A stretch of 64,000 nucleotides of DNA. It comes from a virus. The stretch lies in IMG/VR virus record IMGVR_UViG_3300005337_000002; one strand, 5' to 3'. Each line of letters opens with the position of its first letter. Positions within the stretch are counted from its first letter, which is position 1. A program made the translations under genes and the position numbers. The notes under the pieces were generated by a model, which did not search any database, was not told where the DNA came from, and was given only the letters and a program-made list of their open reading frames with translations. Below are positions 29,545-64,000 of this stretch, piece after piece.

Positions 29545-30041
29545 GCTGTGTCCCCCTCGCGCCCGTGCCCGAGATGGTGCCGTGCGGGATTGCCCGTGAC
29601 GATGCTGCCCGCCTTGACGTCCCGCGTCACCACGGCTCCGGCGCCAATGACCGCGCCCGCATGCACAATAATACCGGGGAGAATGACCGCATTGCACCCA
29701 ATCACGACGTCATCCTCAATCACGCACGGGGTATGGACTTCCTGGTCTTTGTGGCGCAGCTGCGGCCGTTTACAGTCCAGGATCGAGACGTTCGTGCCGA
29801 CAAACACATAGGCACCCACGACCGTCCCGGCGGCCAGCGTGGCCCCATGCTGCAGATTACAGCCGTCGCCGAGGAGGGCCCGCTGCCCGATGGAGACGGC
29901 GTCGCCGATCGTACAGCCTTTCCCCAGACTCGCCCCCGCCAGGATCACGGCATGGTGCCAGACCTTGGTGCCGTCCCCGAGATTGACGGTGTGATGGACG
30001 ACGGCGGACGGGGCAATAAAGACGTCGTAGGCCTCAGGCAT
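29541..30041 (-). CDS. Hexapeptide-repeat acyltransferase (WbpD/QdtC-like)
   Basis: LbH repeats; IGAGAVVTRDV..VTGNPAR. Confidence 0.85.
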   Translation of the reverse strand: MPEAYDVFIAPSAVVHHTVNLGDGTKVWHHAVILAGASLGKGCTIGDAVSIGQRALLGDGCNLQHGATLAAGTVVGAYVFVGTNVSILDCKRPQLRHKDQEVHTPCVIEDDVVIGCNAVILPGIIVHAGAVIGAGAVVTRDVKAGSIVTGNPARHHLGHGREGDTA

Positions 30042-41469: not shown

Positions 41470-41992
41470 GGTCCGCCTCGGTGAGCAGGAGTTGGGCTTC
41501 CGCCAGGACCTCTTCGACGGTCAGGCCCAGCGCCTCGGCGACCTTCTGGGCCGTCTGCTGGATCGTGACCTTGAGGTCGACGCGGTCTTTGCGGCCCCAT
41601 TGGTCGGGCTTTGAACGCTCAAGATGCCACGCGTCCGCCTGCCAATCGGGTGGGGCAATACGTTCCTCGACACTCGTACTGCCGTCGCGATGGGTTGTCG
41701 TCTTGCGGTAGACGACGGCGCCGCCGCGTCCGGCCTGTTCAATGCGCGCCACGCGCCGCACGGTATCCGTCGCAATCGCTTTTTGGACAGCGGCATGGAA
41801 GCCCTTATAGGGTTCCGTGGCGGGTCGAGGATGCTCCCCCGCGCCACGATTGACCCATTCCAGCACCGTCGCGCGTGCGATCCCCGCAAATTGCGCGGCT
41901 TCGACTAGCGAGACGCCCGCACCCACGGCGTTCACAATCGCCTGCTGTATTTCTTGAGTGAGTTTGGTGACTCGACCGTTCTGGCGTGCCAT
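41456..41992 (-). CDS. Terminase small subunit (HTH)
   Basis: TKLTQEI..AAQFAGI..WQADAWHLER; overlaps terL start. Confidence 0.75.
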   Translation of the reverse strand: MARQNGRVTKLTQEIQQAIVNAVGAGVSLVEAAQFAGIARATVLEWVNRGAGEHPRPATEPYKGFHAAVQKAIATDTVRRVARIEQAGRGGAVVYRKTTTHRDGSTSVEERIAPPDWQADAWHLERSKPDQWGRKDRVDLKVTIQQTAQKVAEALGLTVEEVLAEAQLLLTEADRADP

Positions 41993-42123
41993 GGTGCTCC
42001 CCTGCCCTCCTCGCGCGCATATACATGCTAGTGCGTGCAAAATCCGCTTGGCGACTCGTGTTGCCCACATGAGTATGGGTCATCTTCTCGACTCATCCCA
42101 TCTTCAGGCTTTGCTACCTGCGC

Positions 42124-46448: not shown

Positions 46449-46694
46449 GTGACGTTTGCGACGACACTCCCCCTCACCATTCTCACGATCACGCCGACGA
46501 CCGTGCTGGCCCATGTCGCCCAGACGACGCTGCTGCGCCAGCACGAGTTGCCGACACTGACCCATGCGGGCCGCACCTGGGTCCCCTTCACGATGCGGCT
46601 CCGCGATGCGCAGACTGCGGCCTTTCACGGGCGCCGGGCGGGCTACGAGATCGAGTATCGCCCGCTACGGTTGGGGGCATGTGCGCCTCAGTAA
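46449..46694 (+). CDS. Hypothetical protein
   Basis: GGAGGA RBS, GTG start. Confidence 0.45.
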   Translation: MTFATTLPLTILTITPTTVLAHVAQTTLLRQHELPTLTHAGRTWVPFTMRLRDAQTAAFHGRRAGYEIEYRPLRLGACAPQ

Positions 46695-49453: not shown

Positions 49454-49542
49454 CAGAACCTCCTTTCCTACTAGACTATAGACCATTTTTCTATTCTAGT
49501 AAAGTTTTTTATCTTTTCTACGATTAAAATGCTATTTTACTA

Positions 49543-49571
49543 TATACATTTTTTCTATTATAGAGTATAAT
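49543..49571 (+). promoter_or_regulatory. Promoter of early operon (divergent region 3)
   Basis: TATACA-17 bp-TATAAT in a very AT-rich gap with repeated TTTTTCTATT. Confidence 0.65.
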
Positions 49572-49873: not shown

Positions 49874-50068
49874 ATGATTCGCATTGAAACGATCACGTAT
49901 GAAGCCGCCCATGGGCACAAACCCCGGCAATCCCGGCAGTATCGCACTAGTCCCTGGGCCTTCCAGATTGACCTGGACCCGACACCAGTATTCATCACAG
50001 CGTCGTATGCGGACGCGGTGAAACAGGCCAAGACCCGGGCGCAGTACAGTATTACCGTCCTCCCCTAA
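49874..50068 (+). CDS. Small early protein
   Basis: GAAGGA RBS. Confidence 0.55.
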   Translation: MIRIETITYEAAHGHKPRQSRQYRTSPWAFQIDLDPTPVFITASYADAVKQAKTRAQYSITVLP

Positions 50069-50249
50069 GCGGACACACACAGGAGACAGCGTCATGGCAA
50101 AGTTTGGACATGTGAAGGGGACGAAGAAAGAGACGAAGCGGGCGAGTGACTGGTACCGCCAGATTGAAGAAGCGACGATCCGCCAGGTGGAAGCGCAGTG
50201 GCAGGCCCGGCAGGTACAAGGTAGCACGCAACAGACAAAGGACTGAGCC

Positions 50250-50660
50250 TTGACACCGACGATCCGAGACCGCGCCAAAAACGGCGGGCAGGGCATGCGA
50301 TGGATTCGCCATGAAAAGCGGTTAGCGTTGTACCTTAGGGACGGATTGGCCTGTGCCTATTGCGGCTATGGCATTGAGGACGGCGCACAGTTGACGCTCG
50401 ACCATCTCCATCCGCATAGTACGGGTGGCAGCAATGACGCCACGAACCTCGTCACCTGCTGCATGCGCTGTAATAGTAGTCGCGGCAATCGGGATTATCG
50501 GCAGTTTGCGGAAGCCGTTGCGGCCTATGTCAATCATGACGTGACCGCTGCGGCGATTCTTGCGCACATTGCGACGACTGTGCAGCGTCCGTTTGATGTG
50601 GCCGCGGCGAAGGCGCTCATTGCCCAGCGCGGCAGTTTTGCACAAGCCTTACACAACTAG
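50250..50660 (+). CDS. HNH endonuclease
   Basis: RDGLACAYCG..TLDHL.P..GG.N..NLVTCC.RCN. Confidence 0.85.
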   Translation: MTPTIRDRAKNGGQGMRWIRHEKRLALYLRDGLACAYCGYGIEDGAQLTLDHLHPHSTGGSNDATNLVTCCMRCNSSRGNRDYRQFAEAVAAYVNHDVTAAAILAHIATTVQRPFDVAAAKALIAQRGSFAQALHN

Positions 50661-51800
50661 TGGTCTCTTTTATCATGCGTTAACACTTGGAGGATTGATT
50701 CATGATGACGACAACGGGTGCTTTTCGTGTATCGACACATGATCTCGTGCGCACTGAGCGCGCTGAATGGTGTGCAGAGGCCAGTTCTTTACGATTTCCG
50801 GTTGGGCGCTGGCCGATGAAACTGCTCCTCACGGACGTCGAAGGCCCAGATATTCTCTTGCGGCATGTCCGGGCCGAACAGAGCGGGGCCGTGCATCTCT
50901 ATGAGAGTGTTGACACGGCGGCGACGATGATCCTGACCATATTTAATGACTAAGCCTCTTCGAGAAAGGACATAGGTATGCGGATTGAGATCATCTACGG
51001 ACAGTCACTGAACAACGGGGCGAAGGCTGTCCCCTGCATCGATTGTCGCACCGAGGAGCGTTCCATAGTGGATGCCGCCGCGGTCCTCGTGTTTGGCCGG
51101 ACGCGCATCCCGCTCTGCGTCCGACACCTCCTCCTCATGGAACGCAACCTCTGCGTGCAGTTAGCGCGGCTCTGTGGTGATCCATCGACCCAGCGGGCCT
51201 AAGCGTGCGCGGGCAGGTTCACAGGGACCTGTCCAGCCTGAGACAACAGGCACGTTCTCTCCGAGAGCGTGGGCGTCAGGGCTTTGCGTAGAAAGGATGT
51301 TCCGTATGGCGAAGTCTCACGGTATGCATGCCTGTCATCAGCGCTATCGCGTGATTGTGACCCTCGAACATCACGGCTGTTCCTGGCAGGCGAGTTACCT
51401 CAGTGACAGTATCCCTGATGGGGAAGCGATCACGGCGTTGGCGTCCGTGTGGTTTGTCGAAATCTTTGATCGCCAGACGCAGACGTTTGTGGAATAACCC
51501 GCATGCCTTGGGACGAGGATCAGGGCACGCAAGGAAACGCATGAACTATAGTAACGAAATCCAGTGCCTCTTATTACAAGAACTCGGCGAGTTGCCCCAA
51601 GGCCGCTTGCGCAAGAAAGTGATGCAACTCGCGGCTGATCGTGGGGAGACCTTTGACAAGCACGCCTATCTTGGCGCTCTCGATGATCTCATCCACCTTC
51701 GTCGCATCAGGCCAGACGACGGAAACTGGGTGTTACTACGACGAAGCTCGTCATGAGCGCGCCAATCTGACCCTTGCGCCCTGGGATGAGGACCAGGGCG

Positions 51801-51854
51801 GGTGTCTGTGGCTGTGTGGCCACACTGAGGAGTCCATACCAAGGACGAAACACC
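51801..51854 (+). ncRNA. Hammerhead ribozyme, type III
   Basis: GGUGUC, stem I UGUGGC/GCCACA, CUGAGGA, stem II GUCC/GGAC, GAAACACC; full core, intergenic. Confidence 0.92.
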
Positions 51855-53537
51855 GAGACCCGCACTGCCTGAGAAAGGACCCGCATGCATCATCCCTTTG
51901 TGGCCGCTACGCTGCTCACCGCGGCGCTCACGGTGGCCGCCGTGCCGCCGGGGCAGACCGCCCCGTTGACTCCGCTTCGCACCAGCCCCTTTGCTGACTT
52001 GTGTACCGCGACCACGTATACCGCAAGCGGCATCATGGCCTGTACCCATATGGTCAATCGCTATCGCCTCACGAAGCAGGGGCACTTCAGCGTCGAATCC
52101 TGTCAGACCGCGCGGGAGGCCCGCACTTGGTTTTTAGAGGCGCTGGACGATCTGGGCTACCGGATCTTTAACGCCGTGAGCGCGGTGGAATGCGCACTCA
52201 TCGGGGAGGCACGCCGCCCATGACCACGCACGACATGGCCCGCTGGTTAGAGCACGATGGCAAGGTCGTCACCATTGATACCTATAGGCATATCTTGAAA
52301 GTGAGCGTCTACGAGGCGATCTACCCCTACACACATATGGTCTGCCGCGTGATGGCCGAACCGCTCGACAAGCAGAGCGCATGGTATCGCGGCATCAAGC
52401 AGCAACTCGGCGATGACTGGTCGACCGATGTGCTGGGGAGCGATGCAGACGTCACCGTGAGTGTGATGCAGCAGGTCGAGTGGTAAAGCAAGCTAGGGGG
52501 AAGGCCGCCCTTCCCTCAGGAGATGTCTATGAATACAGTCATCTGCCCAGAATGTCGCTCAACCAATGTTCACCCTGACGACCCCACTGATCACAATATA
52601 GACTGTCACGATTGCGGTATATGGTGGGAGCCGGATCATCCCACCAATCAACTCGACTCCCCCTATTTTGGCAAGACGTTGCCCTCCAGAGAGGAATGAG
52701 ATCATGGCCGACATGACGGTCGCAACGACGATCCTAGAGCAACTCGGCGGACGGCGTTTTCTCGCCATGACCGGGGCGACGCATCTCGCCGCAGCGGGGA
52801 CTGCCCTCCTCTTTACGCTACCCTCGACGCCGCATTTTGTGTGCAAGGGCATCAATCTTGTGCGCGTGACGTTGACGCCGATGGACACGTATACCGTGGA
52901 GTTTTGGAAGCGCACACGACGAGGCGTCCAGGACGTTGCGCGCTGCGAGGATATTTACGCCGAGAACCTCCAAGAGTGCTTTACCCGCGAAACAGGTTTA
53001 GCGACACGACTGTAACTTTAAAGGAGCATCTCATGGTCCGTAAACCACTTGAGCACAGTATTCGTCCGTGGATAGAAAGCGACTTCGGCCACTCCGGCTT
53101 TTTGCTCACGATCCGTGAACCGTACACCGGCCAGCATGGTCAGGGCTTTTTCCTCGAGGAGGATGCAGCGGTGCGGGCGTGGCAGCACGCGCTGCACCGC
53201 TATAACAGTGGCGAGAATCCCCTCGAATATCTGGACACGCCCTTTGTCGCTCTTCCCTAACGCAGCACGGGCAGGATGGGATCCTGCCCTTCTTTCCTTC
53301 TGAGGAGCACCGCATGCTGTCACCTCTTATCGAGTATGCCCAGCAGTGGCACCGCGATCATGACAACAATTTTGCCCTCGCCTGCGCGGATGAGAACAGC
53401 ATCGAGGAATTAGAGGAGGCGCTCCAGCACGACGCGTACGGGTGCGATATTGCACTGTGGCATCTCGCCGGCGCCGAGGAATGGCGTGCGGGGGTGCAAG
53501 CCGCACTGGCCGAACTCCGCGTCACTGACGCCTAAAT

Positions 53538-53607
53538 GCAGAGTGCGCCGGGGGAGCCCGGCGTAATGCAGCTCCTAGCGTAGGGCTGGGACTCGTCACA
53601 AGCCGAG
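53538..53607 (+). ncRNA. Twister ribozyme, circularly permuted (P5 type)
   Basis: GCAGAGUG, P1 CGCCGGG/CCCGGCG, UAAUGCAGC, P3 UCCUAGC/GCUGGGA, P4 CUCG-UCACAAGC-CGAG; both pseudoknots can pair. Confidence 0.88.
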
Positions 53608-54692
53608 ATACGTAGAGAGGAGGTGCCCACGACCTACTAATCTGACACGTTTTAGTAGATGGTTGACATGTCGTTGCTGACACGAGGAGAAGGACGGTGT
53701 GATGGGCAAGAAACGCTATGTGAGTCGCTGCGCCTGTGGCGAAGTCGCCATGCGCTACCGTGAACCGCATCATGGCGGGCTGCATTTTTCGGAGGGCCGC
53801 TGTCCCTCCTGCCAGACTATGCGCGTCTTTCATCTCGTCTTTCCCCCAGACACGCCACGGAATAGAGCGAAGGCGTCACTGTATGAGCGGGGACACCGCA
53901 CTTACTAATCATCAGAAGGAGATGCTGATGGAGGACCAGCTTTCCCTCTTCGGCTCTCCCGCAGAGCCCGAGGGCATTGAGTATGATCGGGACTTCATTC
54001 TCACGAACCCCATTCCTGCCTTCTGTGCACGGGGCGGCTCTTCCCATTGTCGGCAGACGCAACAGCACCAGACCTCTGAGAGGATCCATGCTCCCTCGCT
54101 GCGCAACGTACACTGCTTTTGGTGCTGGGGACCGATGCGCCCGCTCAATCCTGTTACCTATCGTGCGCGACTCGCAACCCTCTGGCAGCATGTCGTGCCT
54201 CAGTCATCCACCTCATAGCGAAGGAGAAGCCTATGCAAACCCTTGTAGGGCATACGTCGAAAACCACGGCGTATGTCTACGATGAGATCGATGCGGTCAC
54301 TGGCGCCCGCCGCCAGCGACGAGCCTGGCTCGAATACAATCCAACCCGGGGCTATCGGATGGTGACCGAGGTCGCCAATCCTCGGAAGCGCGGCGTCCCG
54401 TGGCGCCGCCTGCCGCGTCGAGATGAACCCTACCACGACCTCGCGGTACTGGTTGTCGATGACGCTGGCCACGTGCACCTCAGTGCCTTGGAGGTCCCGC
54501 TCACGAAGAGCATTGTCGAGATTGATGCCTGGGCGACGCTGCATGCCGCTGGATTGCAAGGTGAGCATGATCAACTGCTGCTGGCAGCGTATCGGACGTA
54601 TGCACGCATGCGCGAGGCCCAACAGCAGGCGACCACATCTACTGTCTAGATGGTACAACCCTTTGGGTTGGCATGGATAAGGAGAGCGAACG

Positions 54693-55109
54693 ATGGGCAA
54701 ACGTCTTGAAAGCCTGCTCGACGCCTATACCGCCAAGCGTCAGGAATACGACGCGTTCCAGCTGCACTGTGCCGCGCAGACCGCCGAGATCCTCGCCGCC
54801 ATCCCTGTCGAGTTGCGTGAGGCCTTAGCAAAAGTTGATGCCGCCCGTGACGCTGGGGCACGTCAGTTCCAGGCCGATATTGATGCCCTCGCGGCCACGC
54901 TCAAGTCTGCGGTGGGTGCGGCGGGACATGCCGTCAAAGGGACGGACTACCAGGTCGTCTATAGTCGTGGGCGGGTCAGCTGGGATACGCGGGCGCTGGA
55001 AGGGTACGCCGCTGCGCATGAGGAACTGTATCAGTTTCGCCTGGAAAGCGAACCGACCGTGAGTATTCGCGCCGTTGCGAAGCAACCCCATTATACAGAG
55101 CAGAGGTAG
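54693..55109 (+). CDS. Gam/Gp157-like protein
   Basis: AAGGAG RBS; GRVSWDTRALEGYA..EPTVSIR. Confidence 0.55.
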   Translation: MGKRLESLLDAYTAKRQEYDAFQLHCAAQTAEILAAIPVELREALAKVDAARDAGARQFQADIDALAATLKSAVGAAGHAVKGTDYQVVYSRGRVSWDTRALEGYAAAHEELYQFRLESEPTVSIRAVAKQPHYTEQR

Positions 55110-55344
55110 CGTTGTATGGCAAATAGTCAATGTTTGCGCGGTATGCGCTGCCCGACATGTGGCAGCGTCGAACCGTTTCGTATTGAAGTCATGACGACAG
55201 TGGTTGTTTGGGATGCCGAAACTGAACCCCTCGATCCTCGGGCCACACCTACATGGGACGCTTCGAGTTACTGTAAATGTATGCAGTGCGACATGGAAGG
55301 CTTAGTCTGTGACTTTCGTATCGAGAACACCTAGGAGACACACT

Positions 55345-55785
55345 ATGGCTGCACGTACCACGTCCCGCCGACGCATGACCCCCGAGCAACAAACCGCCTT
55401 TGAGGCCCGCCGCGACCAGATGCAAACCCTTGCCAAGACCATTGCCGCCATGAGTGGCGCCGACCGGCAGGCCCTGGCAGCGTCGGTGGGCACGATCCTC
55501 ACCTGCGAGCAGCGCCCGCTCAGCCCGCACAATACCTGTATGCTCGCGCACCAGCGCCCGGATGCCACGGTCGTGGGCGGGTTTCAACAATGGAAACGGC
55601 TGGGGCGGGCCGTCCGCAAGGGCGAGAAGGGGAGTTATATCTGGGTGCCGCTGGCCGCGGGTACGCAAGAGCCCGGCCCCGAGGGGGAAGAGGACGCGGC
55701 GACACGGCAGCGTTTTCGCCTCGTGGCCGTGTTCGATGTCAGTCAAACCGACGAAGACACACAGGAGGAGTCCCATGGGGCATGA
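55345..55785 (+). CDS. ArdC-like N-terminal ssDNA-binding (anti-restriction) protein
   Basis: LSPHN, QRPDAT.VGGFQQW..GRAVRKGEKG.YIWVP, VFDVSQT. Confidence 0.8.
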   Translation: MAARTTSRRRMTPEQQTAFEARRDQMQTLAKTIAAMSGADRQALAASVGTILTCEQRPLSPHNTCMLAHQRPDATVVGGFQQWKRLGRAVRKGEKGSYIWVPLAAGTQEPGPEGEEDAATRQRFRLVAVFDVSQTDEDTQEESHGA

Positions 55786-57429
55786 CATGACCTTTGACCG
55801 CACGACCGCCGCGAAAGGGCGCAATGGCTGGTTTATCCTTGACCACGGGGATGTCGTGGTCGGGCAGGATGCGAGTTGGCTTGAGTTATGCTCGAAGCGC
55901 GTCGGAAGCGCTGCTCCTATTAGCGTGCGCTTTGCCCATCCGGCAGATATGCACCAGTTGGGCGCAGCGTTGCTCACGGCTGCTGCGCAATGGGGAGCCC
56001 TGCGCAACCCGTCAAGCGCTCCCCAGATGGCGCCGTGCTCGCCTTCTCCCTGTCCGCAATGTGGCGGGAAGGACTTGTGGATCCGCGTCACGCAGCGCGC
56101 CGAGCAGAAAATTACGCTGTATGGCCCTCGTGTCGGGGACTATCGCTACGACGTCAGCCACGAGGATGTGCAGGATACGACCTATCACGCCGCGACCTGT
56201 CGTGCCTGTGCGTATGTCTGGACACTTGAACAGGCATCGCCCTCACAAGGAGATCACTAGATCATGACGCACAAGGAACGCGCCTGGCAGATTCTTGAAG
56301 AGGCCTTGCAGCAGAGTACACAGCCCGACCAGCACCGCCCAGACGATCACGAGGCCCTCTTGGCAACCGTGGTTGAGCAGTACATTGAGGATGAGGGCAT
56401 CAGTCTTTTCGTGACGTACCCAGGACTACATGAGGTGTTAAGTCTCATCTTTGCCGCAGAGATTCAGGAGGAGCGGCAGCGAGAGATGGAAGAAGAAACG
56501 CTAGAGTATATACACACTGAGGAGCATGCCTAATGGCACAGAGCAAGATCACCCTTGACCAAATTACTGAGGCGATTAAGTCCGGTGAATATCTGGGCTT
56601 TTGTCTCGCCTGCGGGGCGATGCAGGATGGTGTCGAGCCGGATGCCCGCCGCTATGTCTGTGATGCCTGTAACGAGCCGCGCGTCTACGGTGCGGAAGAA
56701 TGTTTACTCATGGTGATGGGCTAGGAGGAACGATGTCGCAACCAGACAAGCTCGAACTGACGAGTGAGCCGACATTAACGCTGGAGCAGGATGCCTTACT
56801 GCGGAAACTCTATCGTCGTGGCGGGATCGTCGTATCCGCTGACGATCACCATATTCTGCATGCCCTCGTGCGGGCGGGGTGGGTTGGTAAACGCTCGCCC
56901 GCACGTATGGGACAGCAGGTCACGCACTTCGTCACGCTGAAGGGCGCGCGCTACTGTGCCCAAGGCAGCATAACGATGCGTGCACCACTTCTGGAAATCG
57001 TAGACGCCGCGCATGCGGCCCATCATGATCCGACGCGGCCGTGCGAGCGGGACTGTCCGCTCTGTCAGGTCGAACGGGCTGAGCAGCATGAGGAGTATAG
57101 CTAAGATGCAGTGTGCACACTGTGGAGGACAGACATTTGAGGTCGGTGGTCCGATCACGATTTGGCGGGACCAGACCATTCGATTTACGGATGCTCTCGG
57201 CAATTATACCGTTGAGCATGATGAGCTTGGCGAGACGACGGAGACGCATGATTGGGAGGAGGCGCGCTGTGCAGACTGTGGGCACGCTCTTCCCGTCGGC
57301 ATGCTCTTTGGATCCGCACCGCAGGACAGCTAGGAGCATGACTTCCTAGCTGTCCGCATATCACGAGTGCCGGACGCTTCTCACACGAGGGGCGTCCGGT
57401 GCCTGGCAAAGCACCAAGGAGTATACCCT

Positions 57430-58371
57430 ATGGCGAAAGCCCGCCAACCGATCCTCCGTCCCGGCGAGCATCATCTTCGTGAAATGGAGCGCCTGCTACG
57501 CCGTCTGGGCGAGCGTCATCAACTCTGGACCGCCTTTGAAGATTTCGTGGCGATGAGTGCGTTCAGCATCAGCAATGCCATTGATCCGCGCGCCTATACC
57601 GAGCGTGAAGCTGCTTATATGCAGATCGTCAAGCGCTATAGTACGGACGAGGTTCAGCAGTTTCCCATGATCTTCAGTCAACTCGTTCTGGCACTAGAGG
57701 CCGAGCCGCAGGATTATCTCGGACGTCTCTTTCACGCGCTGGAGTTACATAACAAGTGGCGGGGGCAATACTTCTCGCCGTGGAGTCTCTGTGTCTGTAT
57801 GGCGCAGATGACCGTGCATGATGCGAAGGAGCTTCTCGCGACCCAGCCGTTTCTCACGGCCTGTGAACCGTGCGCCGGCAGTGGCGCGATGGTCCTTGCA
57901 CTCGCAGAAGCCTTGCGCGACCACGAGATCAATTACCAACAGTATCTCCATGTTACCGCGATTGACATTGATCTTCGCTGCGTGCACATGGCGTACGTGC
58001 AAATGAGCCTGCTCCATATTCCAGGGATCGTCTTGCACGGGGATTCACTGCTGGGAGAGACCTGGAGTACGTGGGCAACCCCCGCGCATATCCTGGGCTT
58101 CTGGGCCGAGAAACTTGCTCATCAGCAACAGATTCCTGCACCAGAGACGTCAGCCGCTCTTCTGCCTGCCCCACTTGATACAACGGGTGAGGTTATCGAG
58201 TCGGTTGACGATATTCCGCTCCCAGTCATGACGACAACTGTTGCCTCAGTCACAGACGAGTTGCTCACCATGATCGCTATGGCGCGCCAGCCTATCCCTT
58301 TCCCTGCTGTCCCAGCGAAGCCATCACCCCCGCCTTCCGTCACAGTTGGAACCCAGCTCACACTGTGGTAG
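57430..58371 (+). CDS. N6 DNA methyltransferase-like protein of leading-region type
   Basis: DYLG.LF..GQYFSP, EPCAGSGAM, AIDID..CVHMAY.Q.SL. Confidence 0.8.
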   Translation: MAKARQPILRPGEHHLREMERLLRRLGERHQLWTAFEDFVAMSAFSISNAIDPRAYTEREAAYMQIVKRYSTDEVQQFPMIFSQLVLALEAEPQDYLGRLFHALELHNKWRGQYFSPWSLCVCMAQMTVHDAKELLATQPFLTACEPCAGSGAMVLALAEALRDHEINYQQYLHVTAIDIDLRCVHMAYVQMSLLHIPGIVLHGDSLLGETWSTWATPAHILGFWAEKLAHQQQIPAPETSAALLPAPLDTTGEVIESVDDIPLPVMTTTVASVTDELLTMIAMARQPIPFPAVPAKPSPPPSVTVGTQLTLW

Positions 58372-58464
58372 AGAATGAGAGGAGCCTAGGGCAAGGTGAA
58401 CGAGTATAACAGCCCAAAACAGAGCTAAGGGGGCGAAGGCTCTCTTGGCTCGAAAGGACTATCT

Positions 58465-59145
58465 ATGCACATCATTCGCCTCAAAAGTGGGGAAGAGGCG
58501 CTTGTAGATGATGAAGATTATCCACGATTGGCCCAATATACATGGTATGCGTCCCCGAGTGGGAAGATCCTCTATGCAAAACGCTATAGAGGGCATACCT
58601 CTATTTTTATGCATCGTGATATTCTGGGACTGGAGGGACCACGGATTGATCATTGGAATCACAATGGTCTGGACAATCAACGTGCCAACCTCCGGCGTTG
58701 TACTCCTGGACAAAATCTACAAAATCAACGCCCGAGTCGTCAGGGGACCTCACAATACAAGGGTGTGACTTGGCATACGCTCCGTCAGAAGTGGCGTGCA
58801 ACCATTCGGATTGACGGTCGTCAAACCCATTTAGGCCTCTATGAAAGTGAAGAAGATGCTGCCCACGTCTATGACGAAGCGGCATGCGAACATTTTGGAG
58901 ACTTTGCCTGTCTCAATTTCCCTGAGAACCGTGTAAATGTTCGCAGTACCCTTCAGCAATATGCAACCTACAAAGGCGTTGAGCACCCACGTCCTGGGCG
59001 CTGGCGCGCGCGTATCCGCGTCAAAGATAAGTTGCTCCATCTTGGAACTTTTGACAGTCCAGAAGATGCGGCACAGGCCTATGATGCTGCAGCCCGCTTT
59101 TATTATGGGGTACGCGCCCGCTGCAATTTTGATCTAGAAAAATAA
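58465..59145 (+). CDS. HNH-AP2 homing endonuclease (two AP2 domains)
   Basis: MHR.I..IDH.NHNGLDN.R.NLR; SQYKGV..WRATI..HLG..AA..YD, repeated twice. Confidence 0.88.
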   Translation: MHIIRLKSGEEALVDDEDYPRLAQYTWYASPSGKILYAKRYRGHTSIFMHRDILGLEGPRIDHWNHNGLDNQRANLRRCTPGQNLQNQRPSRQGTSQYKGVTWHTLRQKWRATIRIDGRQTHLGLYESEEDAAHVYDEAACEHFGDFACLNFPENRVNVRSTLQQYATYKGVEHPRPGRWRARIRVKDKLLHLGTFDSPEDAAQAYDAAARFYYGVRARCNFDLEK

Positions 59146-59165
59146 TTCGCACTCGGCTTTCAACC

Positions 59166-59357
59166 CTAGGAGGTGCTTCGTAGCGTTGCGCATATGACCC
59201 CATTGACCCATATTTCGAGCGTGCGCGGCTTATCCTGTGGCCGAATACAAATCTTTACATCCGTCTGCTGGCGGATATTGTTATGGTCATACCACTGCAC
59301 ATGGATCAGGTCTTCCTCGCCTTGGCCACCCGTATGCAGCGTCCATTCACTCGCCAT
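59166..59357 (-). CDS. Small hypothetical protein
   Basis: Short ORF convergent with the HNH-AP2 gene. Confidence 0.4.
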   Translation of the reverse strand: MASEWTLHTGGQGEEDLIHVQWYDHNNIRQQTDVKICIRPQDKPRTLEIWVNGVICATLRSTS

Positions 59358-59374
59358 CGCGCGTCTTTCGTCGG

Positions 59375-59428
59375 TCCCAGGGCACAGAGCGGGACTCCCT
59401 CCCCTCTGTGCCCTGGGTCTTTTTTTTT
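59375..59428 (+). terminator. Strong intrinsic terminator ending the plus-strand early region
   Basis: CCCAGGGCACAGAG/CTCTGTGCCCTGGG followed by a T-run. Confidence 0.75.
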
Positions 59429-59446
59429 GGCCTGCGTTTTCCCCGT

Positions 59447-59893
59447 TTACCGCAGCACGGGCTCTCCCGCCTCGACGCCCATCGAGGACGCCATGGGGTG
59501 ATCCACATGCAAGATCACCGTCTCGGAAATCGTCTCGACCCCCTCTCCCAGGTCCGCGTCTGCTTCCATCAGCACGACACTATCCAGAAAATCATCCCCA
59601 GGCACAAGATAGGCCGTCACGTCGTCAATCGGCTCAATCGTGCAGGTGCCCTCCAGCACCGTAAACGTCACCGGGCCATCGAGCGTGGCCGGGCGTCCGG
59701 AGGGCGTCACGGGATGCTTGGCACCGACGGGCAATTTATATTCGGAGGTAATGCGAAATTCCATGGACATAGCGGACTCCTTGGCACGCAGCACCGGCAT
59801 GCCCACCACCAGTGGTAAGGCGGGGCGTGGGCGCGGATGTACGTGCAGATGCTCAATATAGACACGCTCAATATGGAGACAGGACGGATCCAT
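59447..59893 (-). CDS. Ig-like hypothetical phage protein
   Basis: Beta-rich acidic domain, G.PA.LDG, ADADLGEGV. Confidence 0.5.
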   Translation of the reverse strand: MDPSCLHIERVYIEHLHVHPRPRPALPLVVGMPVLRAKESAMSMEFRITSEYKLPVGAKHPVTPSGRPATLDGPVTFTVLEGTCTIEPIDDVTAYLVPGDDFLDSVVLMEADADLGEGVETISETVILHVDHPMASSMGVEAGEPVLR

Positions 59894-60037
59894 GCGTGTG
59901 TTCCTTTTGTCAGCGTTCACGTCTATGGTAGGCTGTTCCGTCGAGTGCCACAAGCACCGCCCAAAAAAAGTGGGTGCTCACACTTGTTACCATCACCATA
60001 ATCATGTATGATCATGCGCCAAGGAGGATGCGGCTGG

Positions 60038-60307
60038 ATGGAACCTGACCATGTCGGGAAACAGATTGCCCGGTTACGTACTGCGCAGGGCTGGAGTCAG
60101 CGCGAACTCGCCCGTCGCGCCCAGATTCCGTCCCAAACGCTCTCCTACGTGGAGCGGGGGATGCGGGCCGGCGCGCGCCTCACGGTGCGGACCTTGCACC
60201 GTCTTGCGGTGGCCTTCAATGTCTCGGTGGATGCCTTGCTCAACCGGGAAGATGCTGGCGTGTGGTGGCCCCCCAGCGGTCTGTGCGCGTACTTCACGTC
60301 TCACTGA
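60038..60307 (+). CDS. XRE-family HTH regulator
   Basis: VGKQIARLR..WSQRELA..YVERG..LAVAFNVSVDALL. Confidence 0.85.
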   Translation: MEPDHVGKQIARLRTAQGWSQRELARRAQIPSQTLSYVERGMRAGARLTVRTLHRLAVAFNVSVDALLNREDAGVWWPPSGLCAYFTSH

Positions 60308-60375
60308 AGGGCCGTCGCGTATGGCGGCGCAACGGCGGCACTCTACCACACTTTGCGTACTGAGGAAAGGGGGAA

Positions 60376-60774
60376 ATGGTGGCGGATGCGAAAACCCGGC
60401 GGCGGGAACGGTTAGAGCGCCAGCGCCAGGCCCTGGCGGAGCAGGAAGCGCGGGCGCTCGAAGCGGAACGTAGGAAGCGTGACGAGCGCACCAAGGCCAA
60501 GCGTGACCTTGCCGCCGAGTCCCGTGAGATTGATCGCCTCGACCGCGACGAACGCCGGTTGACACTGGGGATTCTCGCGGATGACGCGGGCCTCTATGGG
60601 ATTGACGAGACGCTGCTGCGCCGGGCGTTTCGCGTGCTCGGGATTCTCGATAAATGTCCGGGCGGGCTGGGGCCGGTGCTGGAAGACCTGGAAGCCCAGG
60701 CGCAGCTCGATGATACGTTTGCGCTCGATGAAGCCTCTGTCCATGGGCGACAGGGTTCGATAACCTCTGTATAA
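60376..60774 (+). CDS. Coiled-coil protein, possible mobilisation accessory (TraD/MobS-like)
   Basis: RDERRLTLGILADDAGL; first gene of tra cluster. Confidence 0.45.
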   Translation: MVADAKTRRRERLERQRQALAEQEARALEAERRKRDERTKAKRDLAAESREIDRLDRDERRLTLGILADDAGLYGIDETLLRRAFRVLGILDKCPGGLGPVLEDLEAQAQLDDTFALDEASVHGRQGSITSV

Positions 60775-60787
60775 AAGGAATGACGGA

Positions 60788-61393
60788 ATGGGACTGCTTA
60801 TCGCGATTGGCTTCTTTTTCTTGTGCGGGTGGTTACTGAGCGGCTTTCCGCTTCTTACCGTGCGCTCCCCCAAATCCCAGAACCTTCAGCGCAAGGATTT
60901 CGGCATGCTTCTCGTGCTGGGCGCCCTCGTAGGCACGAGTCTGCTGCCGGTGTCCGTGCTGCATGCTTCCACGATGAAGGGCACGCCGATTGACATTGAT
61001 GGGATTGATGATGCCGCGGCCACGGTAGACAAGCAAACCAAGAGTGGCGCAGGCTATATCTTTGCAGTCGCCGGCTGCTTCGGGGGTCTGGGCGCTCTCA
61101 TGATGGGTTATCCGATGAGTGGCGCCACGACTGCCGCGGGCAGCGTGGGAACGGTCTTTGTCTCCCGCATTATCAATTCCGCGCAGAGTACGGCGCCTGC
61201 CGCAACACCAGACCTCCTCCAGACGCTCTCGCCTGATGCCTGGTGGGCACCATTCACCGTGCCGCTGTATCTTCCCCTGCTCCTGCTCCAACTCATGCGC
61301 CAGCCGACCTTCTGGGTCTGTCTCGCCCTGGCACTGCTCCTCGTGCGTACCCTGCATCGGCGCGGGTACAGTTTGTTCGGGCAGGTGGCGTGA
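60788..61393 (+). CDS. Conjugative pilin-like membrane protein
   Basis: Several hydrophobic helices; immediately upstream of traL. Confidence 0.5.
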   Translation: MGLLIAIGFFFLCGWLLSGFPLLTVRSPKSQNLQRKDFGMLLVLGALVGTSLLPVSVLHASTMKGTPIDIDGIDDAAATVDKQTKSGAGYIFAVAGCFGGLGALMMGYPMSGATTAAGSVGTVFVSRIINSAQSTAPAATPDLLQTLSPDAWWAPFTVPLYLPLLLLQLMRQPTFWVCLALALLLVRTLHRRGYSLFGQVA

Positions 61394-61680
61394 TGTGGGT
61401 GCCCTGTCCGACTGTCCTGGATGATCCGGTGATGCTCTATGAGGTCGAGTTTGATGATCTCTGCGTGTTGCTGGCTCTCTGCTTTGTCCTGAGCCTGGTC
61501 ATCGATATTCTGGTTGCGCTGGGGCTGCTCATCGTGAGCGGCCTTGGCCTGCGCTTTGCTAAACGCGGCAAGCCCGCCGGAGCACTCCTGCACGCGCTGC
61601 ATGATCTTGCGCTGATTCCCTTACCCGGCATCATGTCACCGCGTGGACAGACCTACTCTCCGTGGGGAGACGCGGCATGA
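61393..61680 (+). CDS. traL: F-type conjugation protein TraL
   Basis: P..LDDP..E.DD, two TM helices, KRGKP.G.LLH. Confidence 0.75.
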   Translation: MWVPCPTVLDDPVMLYEVEFDDLCVLLALCFVLSLVIDILVALGLLIVSGLGLRFAKRGKPAGALLHALHDLALIPLPGIMSPRGQTYSPWGDAA

Positions 61681-62288
61681 TGGGCACAACGCCTGACCGC
61701 GAGTTGGCCTATATCACGCATCTAGAGGGACAGGTCACGCGCTTGCAGTGGACGGTGGTGCTCCTGTCGCTCCCCTTGACGATCCTGGCAGGCATGGTCG
61801 GCTGGGCGTGGGTGCGTGGCCTGCCTGCGTATTTCATCCCCCCGGGCGGACCAGGGATTGTGCGCCCGGGCGTCATCCTCGACTCGGTCGCCCTCGACTT
61901 TGCCAGTGAGGCACTCGCCCATCGCTACACCTTTACCCCCGCGACGTTTGCCCAGGTACAGACTGATTTTCAGGCGCTCCTGCATCCGAGTATGTTGCCG
62001 GACTTTGAGGCACGCCGCGCCAAGGAAGTGGTACTGGTGAAGGAGTACCATCTGGGGATGCAAACGACGGTAGCGGCTAACACCGCTCGCATTGCTAGCC
62101 GGAATGGCGAGCGTATCACGGTGGCCCTGGAAGGTCGACGCATGGTCTGGATTGGCAGTAGCGTCGTGCGGGAAGAGGTCCTCACGGCTTCGCTGATACT
62201 GGCGCCCTGGCGTGTGCATGGGCAGCCGTCCGGTCTCGTGCTTGTGGGGATGAGCGTCGCTCCCCCCTTCAGCGTGTCTGGCCCCTAG
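61677..62288 (+). CDS. traE: F-type conjugation protein TraE
   Basis: N-terminal TM, IPP, TFTPAT, V.LEG.R.VWIG; synteny. Confidence 0.75.
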   Translation: MMGTTPDRELAYITHLEGQVTRLQWTVVLLSLPLTILAGMVGWAWVRGLPAYFIPPGGPGIVRPGVILDSVALDFASEALAHRYTFTPATFAQVQTDFQALLHPSMLPDFEARRAKEVVLVKEYHLGMQTTVAANTARIASRNGERITVALEGRRMVWIGSSVVREEVLTASLILAPWRVHGQPSGLVLVGMSVAPPFSVSGP

Positions 62289-62334
62289 CGGGGCTTGTGT
62301 ACTTCTGCTCTCCTCATCTGTAGGAGGTGTACCC

Positions 62335-63057
62335 TTGCGCTGTCCTCTTCTTCTCATGCTCGTCCTCTGTCTGCTTCCTCCTGTTGCCCTCGCCGCTCGT
62401 ACCGTGACGGTTACGGATGGCCCGATTGTCATCAAGCTGGAACTCCGCCAAACCACCGCCATCGTCTTCCCCGAAGCGATCCACTTTGTCTCCTTTGGGT
62501 TGACCGAACAGCAATTGTCCCCGGACTACAAAGGGGCTTACCTGTTTCTGATCCCGCTCACCGAGGATGCCATCGGTCGCGTCTTTGTTCTGGGGGAAGA
62601 GAGCGGTACGCTCTACCATCTGCGCCTCACGCAAGGCACGCCCGGGGATGACCTGGTGCGCGTGACGACCAAGACCGCGCAGCCGCCCCCGGTGCCGCTC
62701 TCCCTCGCATCGCTGCTGCGTCTCTGGCGCACGGGGCAGTCCATCCCTACACAAGCACCAGCGGAGATTCCACTGCCGAATTTTACAGATGCGCGGCTCG
62801 CCCTGGGTGAGCATCAGGCGGTGCAGGTCCAGCAGACTATCGGACTGTCGCTGGTGGTACGGAACCTGACGCCCCATCCCCTGGCGCTCGATCTCCGGGT
62901 CGGCCTGGACCAGTCAAGTCCAGGGGAGGATCGTGTCCTGCTCAGTACCTGGACCTGGCCGCCCCGCTTGACTATCAAGGCGCTGAGCGCGGACCCTGAG
63001 ATTGTGCCGCCCGAAGGGCAGACACGGCTGACCATTCTCTTCCAAGCGAGGCCGTGA
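62335..63057 (+). CDS. traK: F-type conjugation protein TraK
   Basis: Signal peptide; position between traE and traB. Confidence 0.65.
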   Translation: MRCPLLLMLVLCLLPPVALAARTVTVTDGPIVIKLELRQTTAIVFPEAIHFVSFGLTEQQLSPDYKGAYLFLIPLTEDAIGRVFVLGEESGTLYHLRLTQGTPGDDLVRVTTKTAQPPPVPLSLASLLRLWRTGQSIPTQAPAEIPLPNFTDARLALGEHQAVQVQQTIGLSLVVRNLTPHPLALDLRVGLDQSSPGEDRVLLSTWTWPPRLTIKALSADPEIVPPEGQTRLTILFQARP

Positions 63058-63060
63058 CCT

Positions 63061-64000
63061 ATGGCCCTCCATCCGGCCCTTGCGAAACTGCGGATCTTTG
63101 CCCAGCGGCATCCGGTGCTGGCCCTGTTGAGTCTCGGCGGCCTGGGTGCGGCCCTCTATTATGGGTCCGATCTGGTGGCCGGAACCCCGGCGCCTGTGCC
63201 CCGCACGAAACCGGCGCAGGCCCAGACCGTGCCAGGCCTCGGCGCCGAGCGCAGCAATCTGGAAAAGCAACTCCTGACGCTGCAGCAACAGCTGGCCACG
63301 ACGCAGCAGGAACGCAAGGAGGAGCAGCAGGTGTTACGCCAACTCCAGCAACAACTCACGCAGGGCCAGCGGGACGAGGAGCAGAAGCGCCAAGCCTTTA
63401 CGAAGCAGATGGAGGGCGTGGTGACGACCGCCCAGCAACAGATTGCGCAGGCGATCCAGGCCGCGACCCGCCAGGCGGACCAGCAGCGGAAGTCCGTGAC
63501 GCCCACTGGGGGCAGCACCGCCCGCACTCCTGCCCGTCCCGCACCCACCCTGCCTGTGCAAGCTGGGGCGCCGCCGACCCCGAAAGCGGTCATTTTGCAG
63601 CATGCACCCGGACAGGCGAGCGAGCCACGACCCCCACTTCCCCTGTCTCCAGAGACGCCCCAGCTTGCCGCCGGCTGCTTTGCGCGCATGCGGGTGATTA
63701 CCGGCGTGATGGCGACCCCGGTGGGCGGACAGGATTGGTGGCAACGCGGCTTACCTGTGCTCATGAGTGTCACCGATGCCTTTGCCTGTCCCCATCAACT
63801 CCAAGGCCCAGGGCGGGCGCCGCTGCCCACCAGTGTGCCGCTGCAAGGCTGCTTTGCCTTTGGCCGCACGAAGGCGGATCTGAGTGCCAGTCGGGCCATT
63901 ATCGCGCTGGATACCCTGAGTTGCGTCTTTCCCAGCGGCGCCTCGTTTGAGCAGCCGATTAAGGGGTATGTCACGGATGCGGACGGCACGCTGGGGTTGG
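63061..64000 (+). CDS. traB: F-type conjugation protein TraB (VirB10-like), partial
   Basis: TM, coiled coil, then ITGV.A, GCF.FG..ADLSASRA, LSCV, IKGYV.D.DG.LG; runs off window. Confidence 0.8.
   Translation, partial: MALHPALAKLRIFAQRHPVLALLSLGGLGAALYYGSDLVAGTPAPVPRTKPAQAQTVPGLGAERSNLEKQLLTLQQQLATTQQERKEEQQVLRQLQQQLTQGQRDEEQKRQAFTKQMEGVVTTAQQQIAQAIQAATRQADQQRKSVTPTGGSTARTPARPAPTLPVQAGAPPTPKAVILQHAPGQASEPRPPLPLSPETPQLAAGCFARMRVITGVMATPVGGQDWWQRGLPVLMSVTDAFACPHQLQGPGRAPLPTSVPLQGCFAFGRTKADLSASRAIIALDTLSCVFPSGASFEQPIKGYVTDADGTLGL

Follow-up and report, generated by a model that had tools for sequence, protein, structure and literature searches.

Gene content of the window

The window (the whole stretch of 64,000 nucleotides that was analysed) carries head and packaging genes of a tailed phage on the minus strand and, from about 49.5 kb to its end, a single co-oriented array on the plus strand. 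The phage genes are the following:

19945..20940, minus: major capsid-like protein, 331 aa (phrog_771 virion structural, E=1.3e-20; phrog_264 major head protein, E=2.5e-8)
27197..28105, minus: head morphogenesis protein, MuF-like (phrog_2468 and phrog_3517, E about 1e-14)
28102..29697, minus: portal (PF06381 Phage_portal_3, E=1.6e-28, 99.9 bits)
40078..41469, minus: large terminase, TerL (PF17289 Terminase_6C, plus a weak PF03354 match)
41456..42070, minus: putative small terminase (by position only, directly upstream of TerL; weak HTH match)

The best matches of TerL, at 49-62% identity, come from 21 IMG/VR phage contigs, and the putative small terminase is 46% identical to the gene directly upstream of TerL in a related contig (G001). 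The genome of the window (IMG/VR record G000) also encodes a tape measure, a GpJ-like tip protein and an S74 fibre, phage-type replication and recombination proteins (DUF3987 primase-helicase-like, SWIM/Rad52-like and Gp3-like), a hypermodification gene, homing endonucleases, a ribozyme and a ParB_N-domain protein. An earlier sequence-only reading had placed phage head and tail genes within 49874-64000. The head genes are indeed in the same window, but outside those coordinates (19945-41469), and the tail genes are on the same contig, upstream of the window.

The plus-strand array begins with early genes:

49475..49571, both strands: promoter-like sites in divergent orientation where the rightward early array starts and GC falls to 0.54 (TATACA-17-TATAAT, 10/12, on plus; two sites on minus; consensus matches only)
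50250..50660, plus: HNH endonuclease (PF01844 and PF14279, E about 1e-11)
53537..53607, plus: twister-P5 self-cleaving ribozyme (Rfam RF02684, 50.7 bits against a gathering score of 37.6)
55309..55785, plus: protein with an ArdC N-terminal domain, ssDNA-binding and anti-restriction (PF08401, 35 bits against a cut-off of 22.6)
57367..58371, plus: methyltransferase-like protein (phrog_5696, function unknown, E=1.9e-72; PF02384 N6_Mtase, E=0.001, below the cut-off)
58465..59145, plus: HNH-AP2 homing-type endonuclease (PF00847 AP2, E=3e-16; phrog_99 HNH endonuclease, E=1.7e-51)
59447..59953, minus: conserved ORF, divergent from the tra operon (47% identity to a gene of the related contig G002; no Pfam match)

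A Pfam search of the ORFs at 59.2-59.9 kb gave no match. The HNH-AP2 gene had been correctly recognised near tra. The Ig-like gene reported less than 2 kb from tra was not confirmed: the gene at 57367-58371 is methyltransferase-like, and Big_2 found no match genome-wide.

The array continues into an 18-kb tra operon, encoding an HTH regulator, a pilin-like protein, TraL/E/K/B/V/C, a TraG_N-like protein, TraU and a VirD4-type coupling ATPase (T4CP):

60008..60307, plus: Cro/CI-type HTH regulator, head of the operon (PF01381 HTH_3, E=8e-12)
60788..61393, plus: pilin-like protein, probable start Met40 (signal-peptide-like start, hydrophobic stretches; three segments scored)
61243..61680, plus: TraL-like protein, true start probably near 61400 (TIGR02762 TraL, E=0.01, below the cut-off)
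61662..62288, plus: TraE (PF05309 TraE on the L027 and L046 orthologues; 23-43% identity; one TM segment)
62335..63057, plus: TraK, VirB9-like (42% identity to an L046 gene with PF23536 TraK_C; signal peptide)
63061..64000, plus, running on to 64314 past the window: TraB/VirB10 (PF03743 TrbI, E=9.7e-14)
contig C1, after TraB: TraV-like lipoprotein
contig C1 43456-46290: TraC/VirB4
contig C1 38983-40479: TraG_N-like protein (weak, 23 bits against a cut-off of 36)
contig C1 36768-38093: TraU
contig C1 33322-35142: T4CP, VirD4-type
contig C1 32098-32970: Integrase_1/Phage_int_SAM_2 recombinase, directly after the T4CP

A promoter-like site (a consensus match) lies at 59984-60012 by the HTH gene, which occupies the same operon position in L027 and L045. 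The TrbI, TraC P-loop, TraU and T4CP matches lie above the Pfam cut-offs; the TraL, pilin and TraV calls are based only on weak scores, on the annotation of orthologues or on features of the sequence. The putative pilin had no family match and is 31-44% identical to the gene before TraL in relatives. At the TraL position, the gene of the relatives has a weak PF07178 TraL match and shows no sequence match to the TraL-like protein of G000. TraW, TraF, TraH, TraN and TrbC were not recognisable in the G000 copy. A methyltransferase gene and a 299-aa low-GC3 ORF are also located inside the operon.

A 141.5-kb phage genome with an integral tra operon

The record of the window is an IMG/VR virus of the direct-terminal-repeat class, 100% complete according to CheckV, in which a 99-bp exact overlap of the contig ends gives a circle of 141,499 bp. 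An identical TraC is also found on a 141,640-bp contig (141,499 + 141); the two records, which differ in overlap length, imply the same circle. GC amounts to 0.58-0.63 across all modules, with tetranucleotide correlations of 0.77-0.93. Outside the tra operon all genes are phage-like or ORFans, and about 100 ORFs of the genome have no family match. No compositional break, no att repeat and no direct repeat of at least 14 bp flanking tra was found in G000. Plasmid Rep, ParA, cargo genes and a classical integrase were sought there and not found; a temperate or plasmid lifestyle is not established. The window is thus part of one complete, circularly assembled genome of an uncultured tailed phage, and the F-like type IV secretion system (T4SS) operon is an integral and conserved part of it.

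Two more IMG/VR phage contigs, G001 and G002 (99 and 123 kb), combine a related tra operon with head and tail genes. G001 and G000 also have in common the tape measure, the 1871-aa tip protein and fibres; the TerL, portal, scaffold and capsid genes of G001 are its own. With G002 the fibres are in common, and a capsid gene is present there. In four metagenome contigs (L027, L045, L047 and P0021), tra adjoins RecT, RusA, T5orf172, MT-A70, GIY-YIG and beta-helix genes.

The sequence-only reading stands in part. Phage and tra genes were described on one stretch, and they share one circular contig of uniform composition; the ArdC/methyltransferase region and pilin-traL-traE-traK-traB form one co-oriented array; tyrosine and serine integrase families gave no match in the window, no host gene separates the two parts there, and no repeat flanks tra. 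An Integrase_1-type recombinase is nevertheless present just outside the window. Of the genes for which extension of the contig had been proposed, traC and the coupling protein were found, but a relaxase was not. Relatives with the same linkage had also been called for, and six other independent contigs carry it.

Two explanations would deny the phage its operon. A prophage in or beside a conjugative plasmid or an ICE, their junction having escaped notice (the alternative offered by the earlier reading), or an assembly chimera, could be argued from the shared repeats that can join elements in metagenome assemblies, from TerL relatives that lack tra and are ordinary phages with sizes, judged by CheckV completeness, of about 40-80 kb, and from TraC relatives without visible phage genes. 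This is effectively refuted: a chimera or hidden junction is very unlikely because no att repeat or compositional break was found, a plasmid backbone (Rep, ParA, relaxase, cargo) is absent, and the linkage recurs in six contigs from other samples. Tail and tra have, moreover, diverged similarly (in G001, the tip protein is 50% and TraC 43% identical), and the two records agree on one circle. It is also highly improbable that G000 is a conjugation-derived plasmid with domesticated virion genes, such as a GTA-like or tailocin-like device. The recombinase typical of small plasmids, the ParB_N-domain protein and the circular assembly would fit such an origin, but the packaging and head set is complete (TerL, portal, MuF-like, capsid), the replication and recombination proteins are of phage type, the hypermodification gene, homing endonucleases and ribozyme are present, and Rep, ParA and relaxase are not.

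Relaxase loss and maintenance of the channel

The uncultured relatives L042, L043, L044 and L046, with an MPF-F-like T4SS, represent MOBH-type conjugative elements in the comparison; SXT/R391 ICEs and IncA/C plasmids belong to this class. The gene order is the same as in the phage copy (pilin-like, TraL, TraE, TraK, TraB, TraV, TraC, ..., TraG_N-like, TraU, ..., T4CP). In the six closest plasmid/ICE-type relatives, all of which encode a TraI_2 relaxase, the relaxase, its downstream partner and the ParB genes sit between TraU and the coupling protein. In contrast, the MOBH relaxase, the partner gene and the ParB module (ParB_N and HTH_17 genes) are absent from all seven phage-linked copies. The phage copy has gained a BamE-like lipoprotein, usually has Integrase_1 after the T4CP, and lies in a tailed-phage genome.

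A six-frame search of G000 with PF03432, PF07514 and PF08751 (MOBP/Q, MOBH and MOBF relaxases) gave no match, nor did PF07514 in G001 and G002. The relaxases of the relatives, used in tblastn and as an HMM built from them, found nothing in G000, G001, G002, L027 or L045 (positive controls E<1e-220). No relaxase, Rep or Par family was detected among about 180 ORFs scanned, and no non-coding similarity to the relatives marked a shared oriT. The tra operon descends from a MOBH-type conjugative element lineage, and its relaxosome and partition genes are gone in the phage-linked copies. Self-conjugation is not encoded in any recognisable form in G000, although a relaxase of an unfamiliar family could be present among its many ORFans. 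Of the proposed hybrid moving by virion and by conjugation, the shared replicon is therefore retained, but conjugative movement is not supported as encoded.

The MPF genes and T4CP show 40-59% identity to both phage-linked and relaxase-bearing relatives (58-59% for the G000 T4CP against the T4CPs of the latter) and are all intact in G000, G001, G002, L027 and L045. The T4CP retains intact Walker A and B motifs and TraC an intact Walker A, and ATPase motifs are conserved clade-wide. The dN/dS of TraC is 0.05 against a contig with 93% DNA identity (178 synonymous and 32 non-synonymous differences) and 0.09 against a second contig. Judged from these sequence comparisons, the channel and coupling ATPase are kept under strong purifying selection. 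The T4CP is split in L047 and TraU was not called in P0021, and therefore some phage-linked members may be decaying.

Possible uses of the channel

A mating-pair-formation apparatus and coupling ATPase without a relaxase are what genomes usually show when such a system has been exapted to a role other than conjugation. The explanation preferred here, with middling confidence, is a phage lineage in which a mating channel has been domesticated without its relaxase and would be used relaxase-independently rather than for classical self-conjugation, the latter being set aside because a recognisable nicking enzyme is not encoded in G000. What the virus does with the channel is probably not textbook conjugation. 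The phage would build a working mating-type channel in its host, and its use would depend on the coupling protein and not on a relaxase. Phage proteins or nucleoprotein might then be delivered into neighbouring cells upon contact. Anti-restriction factors would be one example, among them the ArdC-like protein whose gene lies just upstream of tra. To our knowledge, protein delivery by an F-type T4SS is without precedent. In arrangement, the ArdC-like and co-oriented anti-restriction genes resemble the leading region of conjugative plasmids, a resemblance that suits DNA transfer no less than phage early genes.

A dual-route element, spreading in virions and also conjugating through a T4SS of its own, with either a nicking enzyme of an unrecognised family or the relaxase of a co-resident element of the related MOBH lineage acting in trans, is a possible but rather unlikely alternative. 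It could explain why a T4CP with intact ATPase motifs, a DNA-binding all-alpha domain match and close similarity to those of relaxase-bearing relatives is kept, and it would suit the leading-region-like ArdC and methyltransferase genes. An Integrase_1-type tyrosine recombinase adjoins the T4CP in 5/7 phage-linked copies, but its homologues (44-49% identity) on many small, mostly non-mobilizable plasmids fit multimer resolution or integration better than the function of a relaxase. On the TraC tree there are at least two changes of the relaxase state, suggesting that the relaxase is dispensable in a phage setting rather than replaced; the failed relaxase and oriT searches also count against this route. 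A non-functional remnant, captured by recombination and decaying after relaxase loss, is improbable. The lost relaxosome and ParB genes, the defects in L047 and P0021, and selfish genes within the operon (the methyltransferase gene and low-GC3 ORF in G000, an IS605-family gene in P0021, an intein-like LAGLIDADG insert in P0028) would agree with decay. However, the five intact gene sets, the low dN/dS and the conserved ATPase motifs argue otherwise, and a useless 18-kb insert is costly where the capsid limits the genome.

The virus has retained an apparently complete bacterial mating channel, conserved and under selection, but without the enzyme by which DNA transfer is normally initiated. The protein-translocating T4SSs (VirB/VirD4, Dot/Icm) likewise combine an MPF apparatus and coupling ATPase without a relaxase. 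Known examples are of the MPF-T or MPF-I type and come from bacterial pathogens or symbionts; none is known to be F-like or virus-encoded, and the G000 system is both.

No paper was found that describes this phage-T4SS system. Like the phage-plasmids (P1, N15 and SSU5 groups), G000 assembles as a circle and combines a complete virion module with some genes of plasmid type (Integrase_1, ParB_N). Known phage-plasmids travel as virions, and what defines them is plasmid genes for replication or partition (Pfeifer et al. 2021, PMC7969092; PMC12282955); conjugation and virion transfer are treated as alternative strategies in a review of them (PMC12282955); G000, in contrast, has a whole T4SS and no Rep or ParA was found in it. 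In Streptococcus phage-ICE tandems (PMC13651849) and prophage-bearing conjugative megaplasmids (PMC12934698), phage and conjugative functions also travel together. Those are accretions in which both elements are complete and separable and bring integrases or att sites of their own, whereas the T4SS of G000 is a relaxase-free module with no detectable junction. Escherichia coli p1002-1, a 'conjugative phage-plasmid', is described as a fusion of a known conjugative plasmid and a known phage-plasmid (SegMantX preprint, 10.1101/2025.03.14.643293). Phage and conjugation genes share one replicon there as well; G000, without a plasmid parent backbone or relaxase, instead belongs to a diverged phage-linked lineage whose members share 43-56% identity in TraC.

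The replicon and its phage genes

The window is the minus strand of nucleotides 46842-110841 of C1, the contig of the genome studied here (G000). C1 is a single contig of 141,598 bp, whose first 99 bases are identical to its last 99, so that it closes to a circle of 141,499 bp. IMG/VR classes the record under direct terminal repeats, and CheckV puts its completeness at 100%. Records at JGI, Logan and ENA show an identical TraC protein on three contigs of up to 141,640 bp. That maximum equals 141,499 + 141, and that of C1 equals 141,499 + 99; by this arithmetic, two assemblies with different k-mer overlaps appear to have arrived at the same circle.

About 180 ORFs were scanned on G000; about 100 ORFs matched no family. 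Outside the 18-kb tra operon, its content is phage-like or ORFan. The Caudoviricetes hallmark trio (large terminase, portal and HK97-type major capsid) is present, as is a tail module of tape measure, tip/baseplate and fibres.

Phage structural genes of G000 (window positions; the last four lie upstream of the window on the same contig)
19945-20940: capsid-like protein (phrog_771/phrog_264)
27197-28105: MuF-like head morphogenesis protein
28102-29697: portal (PF06381)
40078-41469, - strand: TerL (PF17289, weak PF03354)
upstream: tape measure, 1110 aa (PF20155 TMP_3 and an SLT domain)
upstream: tip protein, 1871 aa (GpJ FNIII-A below the cut-off, 24 bits vs 27)
upstream: fibre (Peptidase_S74)
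upstream: several beta-helix and LamG proteins

Other phage-like genes encode a DUF3987 primase-helicase-like protein, a PD-(D/E)XK nuclease, a ParB_N-domain protein, a PolB-type exonuclease and a SWIM/Rad52-like protein. The TerL is 49-62% identical to its matches in 21 IMG/VR contigs, and TraC is absent from 11 IMG/VR contigs carrying TerL relatives. Three TerL-relative contigs (47-52% GC, estimated genomes of ~40-47 kb) have only TerL and one small gene in common with G000. Since they share almost nothing else, the packaging gene is a mosaic acquisition, and as such it is uninformative on the linkage between phage and tra genes.

That linkage had been described in the sequence-only reading, which also considered a prophage nested with an ICE or plasmid across an unseen junction. 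The linkage is genuine and conserved; the nesting found no support. GC lies at 0.58-0.63 in each module and tetranucleotide profiles correlate at 0.77-0.93, so that composition is uniform around the circle. No direct repeat of at least 14 bp was found flanking the tra operon, and the classical tyrosine and serine recombinase models (PF00589, PF00239) have no match in G000. Host genes are absent from the circular assembly, and no att site was found despite an Integrase_1 recombinase.

Relatives with the same linkage were recovered with a TraC alignment. They comprise two further IMG/VR phage contigs, G001 (98,897 bp) and G002 (122,663 bp), and four contigs of other samples (L027, 134 kb; L045, 66 kb; L047; and that of the TraC homologue P0021), which makes six contigs besides C1. 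The whole tra operon, Integrase_1, the tape measure, the 1871-aa tip protein (50% identity), the fibres, a putative small terminase and a Gp3-like gene are common to G001 and G000. The TerL, portal, scaffold and capsid of G001 are of a different type from those of G000. The tra operon, Integrase_1 and fibres recur in G002, where a capsid gene and a phage primase were also identified. The tra and tail genes are co-oriented in G001 and G002 and divergent in G000. In the other four contigs the same operon stands beside phage-type genes (RecT, RusA, T5orf172, MT-A70, GIY-YIG or beta-helix). Because relatives repeat the linkage, the association is old, has outlived rearrangement and replacement of the head module, and is not a chimera of one assembly. 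A chimera, or a nested pair of prophage and plasmid/ICE, is hardly credible.

Other databases held little of this kind. Matches to TraC among INPHARED phages show only 22-24% identity, and those to the portal among PLSDB plasmids only 23-29%. A scan of IMG/VR with the single TraC protein gave no match. Most contigs from the metagenome scan are shorter than 6 kb and say little about linkage. The scan of GTDB genomes with the TraC alignment was empty, and so pointed to no host.

The early array and the tra operon

A co-oriented array on the + strand begins near 49.5 kb, at a divergent promoter-like region of low GC, and continues to the end of the window. As had been read from the sequence alone, an ArdC/methyltransferase early region and an HNH-AP2 gene lie in this array upstream of tra. 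A phage-style Ig-like gene, also placed near tra in that reading, was not found, and Big_2 has no match anywhere in the genome. The operon continues beyond the window along C1.

Features of the early array and tra operon (window positions unless C1 is stated; + strand within the window)
early array, +: HNH endonuclease
53537-53607, +: twister-P5 self-cleaving ribozyme, among small early-array genes (Rfam RF02684, 50.7 bits; the one ribozyme here to exceed the Rfam gathering score)
55309-55785, +: ArdC N-domain ORF
57367-58371, +: methyltransferase-like gene
after the methyltransferase-like gene, +: HNH-AP2 endonuclease
59984-60012: promoter-like site ahead of the HTH gene (consensus match)
60008-60307, +: Cro/CI-type HTH regulator, heading the tra operon
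beyond the window, in order: TraV-like lipoprotein; TraC/VirB4 (859 aa); 3-TM protein; 430-aa Cys-rich secreted protein; TraG_N-like protein; TraU; three small ORFs; 606-aa VirD4-type coupling protein (T4CP); BamE-like lipoprotein
C1:32098-32970 (14098-14970, +, of the flanking locus L002): 290-aa Integrase_1/Phage_int_SAM_2 recombinase, after the BamE-like gene, on the strand opposite to the operon

The proposed cluster pilin-traL-traE-traK-traB held up in part. TraB matches TrbI directly (PF03743), TraK is supported through a 42% identical orthologue carrying PF23536, and TraE through orthologues carrying PF05309. The TraL match is weak (E=0.01, below the cut-off), and the pilin call is based on a signal peptide and hydrophobic stretches alone. 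TraV was called from its position, its lipobox and a syntenic PF09676 gene in L042, a relative of plasmid/ICE type. Direct matches were obtained for TraC (PF19044 at 64.5 bits, with close homologues carrying PF11130 TraC_F_IV), TraU (PF06834, 84.8 bits) and the T4CP (PF10412, PF12696 and PF02534, all above their cut-offs). The TraG_N-like protein reaches 23 bits against a cut-off of 36, and the profile of the 430-aa Cys-rich protein has no match in the PDB. TraW, TraF, TraH, TraN and TrbC have no Pfam or NCBIfam match in G000, so that the set of an F-type type IV secretion system (T4SS) is only partly recognised.

The two ATPases of the channel appear to be maintained. The Walker A (GTTRSGKS) and Walker B (VLIDE) motifs of the T4CP are kept across the clade; in TraC the Walker A motif (GTSGAGKT) is kept and a D-E pair is invariant in the alignment. 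Between TraC and its counterpart on a 4-kb contig of another sample (93% DNA identity), 178 differences are synonymous and 32 non-synonymous, which corresponds to a dN/dS of 0.05; a second contig gives 0.09. These ratios show that strong purifying selection has acted on TraC recently in this element.

Two genes of low GC3 interrupt the operon, at C1:38234-38968 and C1:41749-42648 (71874-72608 and 68194-69093 when the window numbering is extended). One encodes a DNA methyltransferase of the adenine/N4 type; the other is a 299-aa ORF, also found at the same place in G002. Selfish inserts occur in relatives as well: the TraC homologue P0028 contains a LAGLIDADG insert, and the P0021 contig an IS605-family gene. 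When L051, the relative at 93% identity, is compared with C1 (extended window 63676-67747), the 441-nt TraV-like gene shows 1 difference, against ~210 in TraC. This uneven divergence suggests recent recombination inside the operon.

The relaxase and the role of the channel

In six relatives (P0003, P0010, P0018, P0042, P0044 and P0057; P0042 on a contig of 7.98 Mb), the stretch between TraU and the T4CP includes a gene for a TraI_2 (MOBH) relaxase (376-415 aa), in most cases with ParB_N and HTH_17 genes nearby. In all seven phage-linked copies the relaxase is absent, and so are its downstream partner and the ParB/HTH_17 genes. A six-frame search of G000 for MOBH, MOBP/Q and MOBF relaxases (PF07514, PF03432 and PF08751) gave no match; PF07514 likewise has none in G001 or G002. 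Searches by tblastn and HMM built from the relaxases of the relatives found nothing in G000, G001, G002, L027 or L045 (controls at E<1e-220), and no relaxase is among the ~180 scanned ORFs of G000. The mating-pair-formation genes and the T4CP are each common to both kinds of relative, at 40-59% identity. The oriT search gave no non-coding similarity to the relaxase-bearing relatives, and only generic inverted repeats were seen (59376-59417).

Six of the relaxase-less copies group in a single clade of the TraC tree (SH-aLRT 99). P0021, the seventh, adjoins the relaxase-bearing P0018, and the relaxase state changes at least twice. A single clade of all seven is marginally rejected by the AU test (p=0.038). 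A prediction of a single loss at the base of a TraC clade failed: P0018, which lies inside the clade, carries TraI_2.

Two candidate proteins were rejected. Close homologues of the Integrase_1 protein, considered as a TcpM-like enzyme, are common on small, mostly non-mobilizable plasmids, and it has no PDB sequence match. The 240-aa protein w99899, considered as relaxase or Rep, is one of the proteins that G000, G001 and G002 share beyond those of the tra operon and the tail/fibre set; in the ESM Atlas it falls among viral SWIM/Rad52-like proteins. As an observation in its own right, homologues of Integrase_1/Phage_int_SAM_2 (44-49% identical) occur on 241 PLSDB plasmids, many of them small and non-mobilizable, from Glaesserella, Vibrio, Rhizobium, Acinetobacter and Burkholderia. 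The protein may be a widespread, little-studied plasmid enzyme of resolution or integration.

The F-like channel and coupling ATPase of the phage genome G000 are intact and under selection, and the genome has no recognisable relaxosome. Extension along C1 had brought in TraC, the T4CP and Integrase_1, and neither a relaxase nor att sites. Of the hybrid moving by virion and by conjugation that had been proposed, the anatomy stands and self-conjugation does not: the T4CP of a self-transmissible element is there, and no recognisable relaxase is encoded. A T4SS with mating apparatus and T4CP in the absence of a relaxase is the usual sign of a turn to a non-conjugative role. From the gene content, we infer a phage carrying an exapted T4SS.

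The favoured explanation, to which about even odds are given, is that phage proteins or nucleoprotein are delivered to neighbouring cells by a route that needs the T4CP and no relaxase. It is preferred because a relaxase-less apparatus is typical of exaptation and because the relaxase state changes at least twice. The phage would express the tra operon, headed by the Cro/CI-type HTH gene, and pilus and channel would be built in a diderm host, to which the lipoproteins, signal peptides and BamE-like protein point. The products of the ArdC-like and methyltransferase genes just upstream may be cargo or co-workers. More tentatively, a lineage of large tailed phages may have adopted the F-like channel and coupling ATPase, dropped the relaxase and turned the apparatus to contact-dependent delivery to neighbours. 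The cargo would then be anti-defence or takeover proteins preparing neighbours for infection, or the viral genome by a relaxase-independent route.

A dual route, in which the element spreads by virions and by conjugation with a hidden or borrowed relaxase, has real support in the retained T4CP and in a gene array that resembles a leading region; given the empty relaxase searches, it is judged unlikely. Some phage-linked members may be decaying, as the T4CP of L047 is split and no TraU was called on the P0021 contig; set beside the conserved motifs and low dN/dS of TraC, a non-functional remnant is nevertheless improbable in G000. A plasmid with a domesticated virion would fit the plasmid-type genes, namely the ParB_N-domain gene next to the PD-(D/E)XK nuclease and an Integrase_1 recombinase that resembles enzymes of small plasmids. 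Neither ParA (AAA_31) nor Rep families are among the scanned ORFs, and this origin is very improbable.

By sequence and gene order, the MOBH/F-like conjugative lineage (L042-L046) is closest to the operon. G000 differs from phage-plasmids in that no Rep or ParA was found, and from an integrated prophage or ICE with att junctions in being circular, without host genes or flanking repeat. Textbooks treat virion transfer and conjugation as alternatives of different elements. A 2025 review of plasmid mobility also presents them as alternative strategies (PMC12282955). The "conjugative phage-plasmid" of E. coli is described as a fusion of two still recognisable elements (10.1101/2025.03.14.643293); beyond that replicon, the term was found only in passing in one preprint. 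Phage-ICE tandems (PMC13651849) and prophage-carrying megaplasmids (PMC12934698) are accretions of separable elements. The literature searched gave no account of a phage lineage whose T4SS is F-like and relaxase-free.

Here, a complete phage genome retains the whole mating channel under strong purifying selection, as do relatives in other samples, and the relaxase that defines conjugation is missing from every phage-linked copy: a natural example, in a virus, of a T4SS that has changed its job. If delivery is its role, two things would be seen for the first time: a T4SS that is encoded by a virus and has its own function, and an F-type system that has been exapted. Moving the phage genome would provide a second route of spread, capsid-free and receptor-independent; moving proteins would let phages act on cells still uninfected. 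Either outcome would alter the modelling of host range and of gene flow. Such elements would be misfiled by classifiers that sort sequences into virus or plasmid, and by MOB-based mobility typing.

Further genes of the genome

A TET-associated glycosyltransferase gene (TAGT; 42124-43122, - strand; PF20691, E=9e-43) adjoins the terminase genes, and 46679-47119 (+) encodes a protein with a weak match to the UDG superfamily. Together they suggest hypermodified phage DNA; no TET/JBP gene was identified in G000. A tRNA-Asn lies at 26314-26384. A 175-aa protein (L002:2928-3455, +; C1:20928-21455) matches the PHAX RNA-binding domain (PF10258, E=1e-19), an odd find in a phage, since the domain is known from adaptors of snRNA export in eukaryotes. 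The region separating the tra operon from the tail genes encodes a NADAR-domain protein (13757-14290, -, of the other flanking locus, L001), a Lar-like restriction-alleviation protein (L002:1486-1986, +) and a 459-aa Gp3-like (RDF-like) protein (L001:695-2074, -), which are probably anti-defence or replication accessories.
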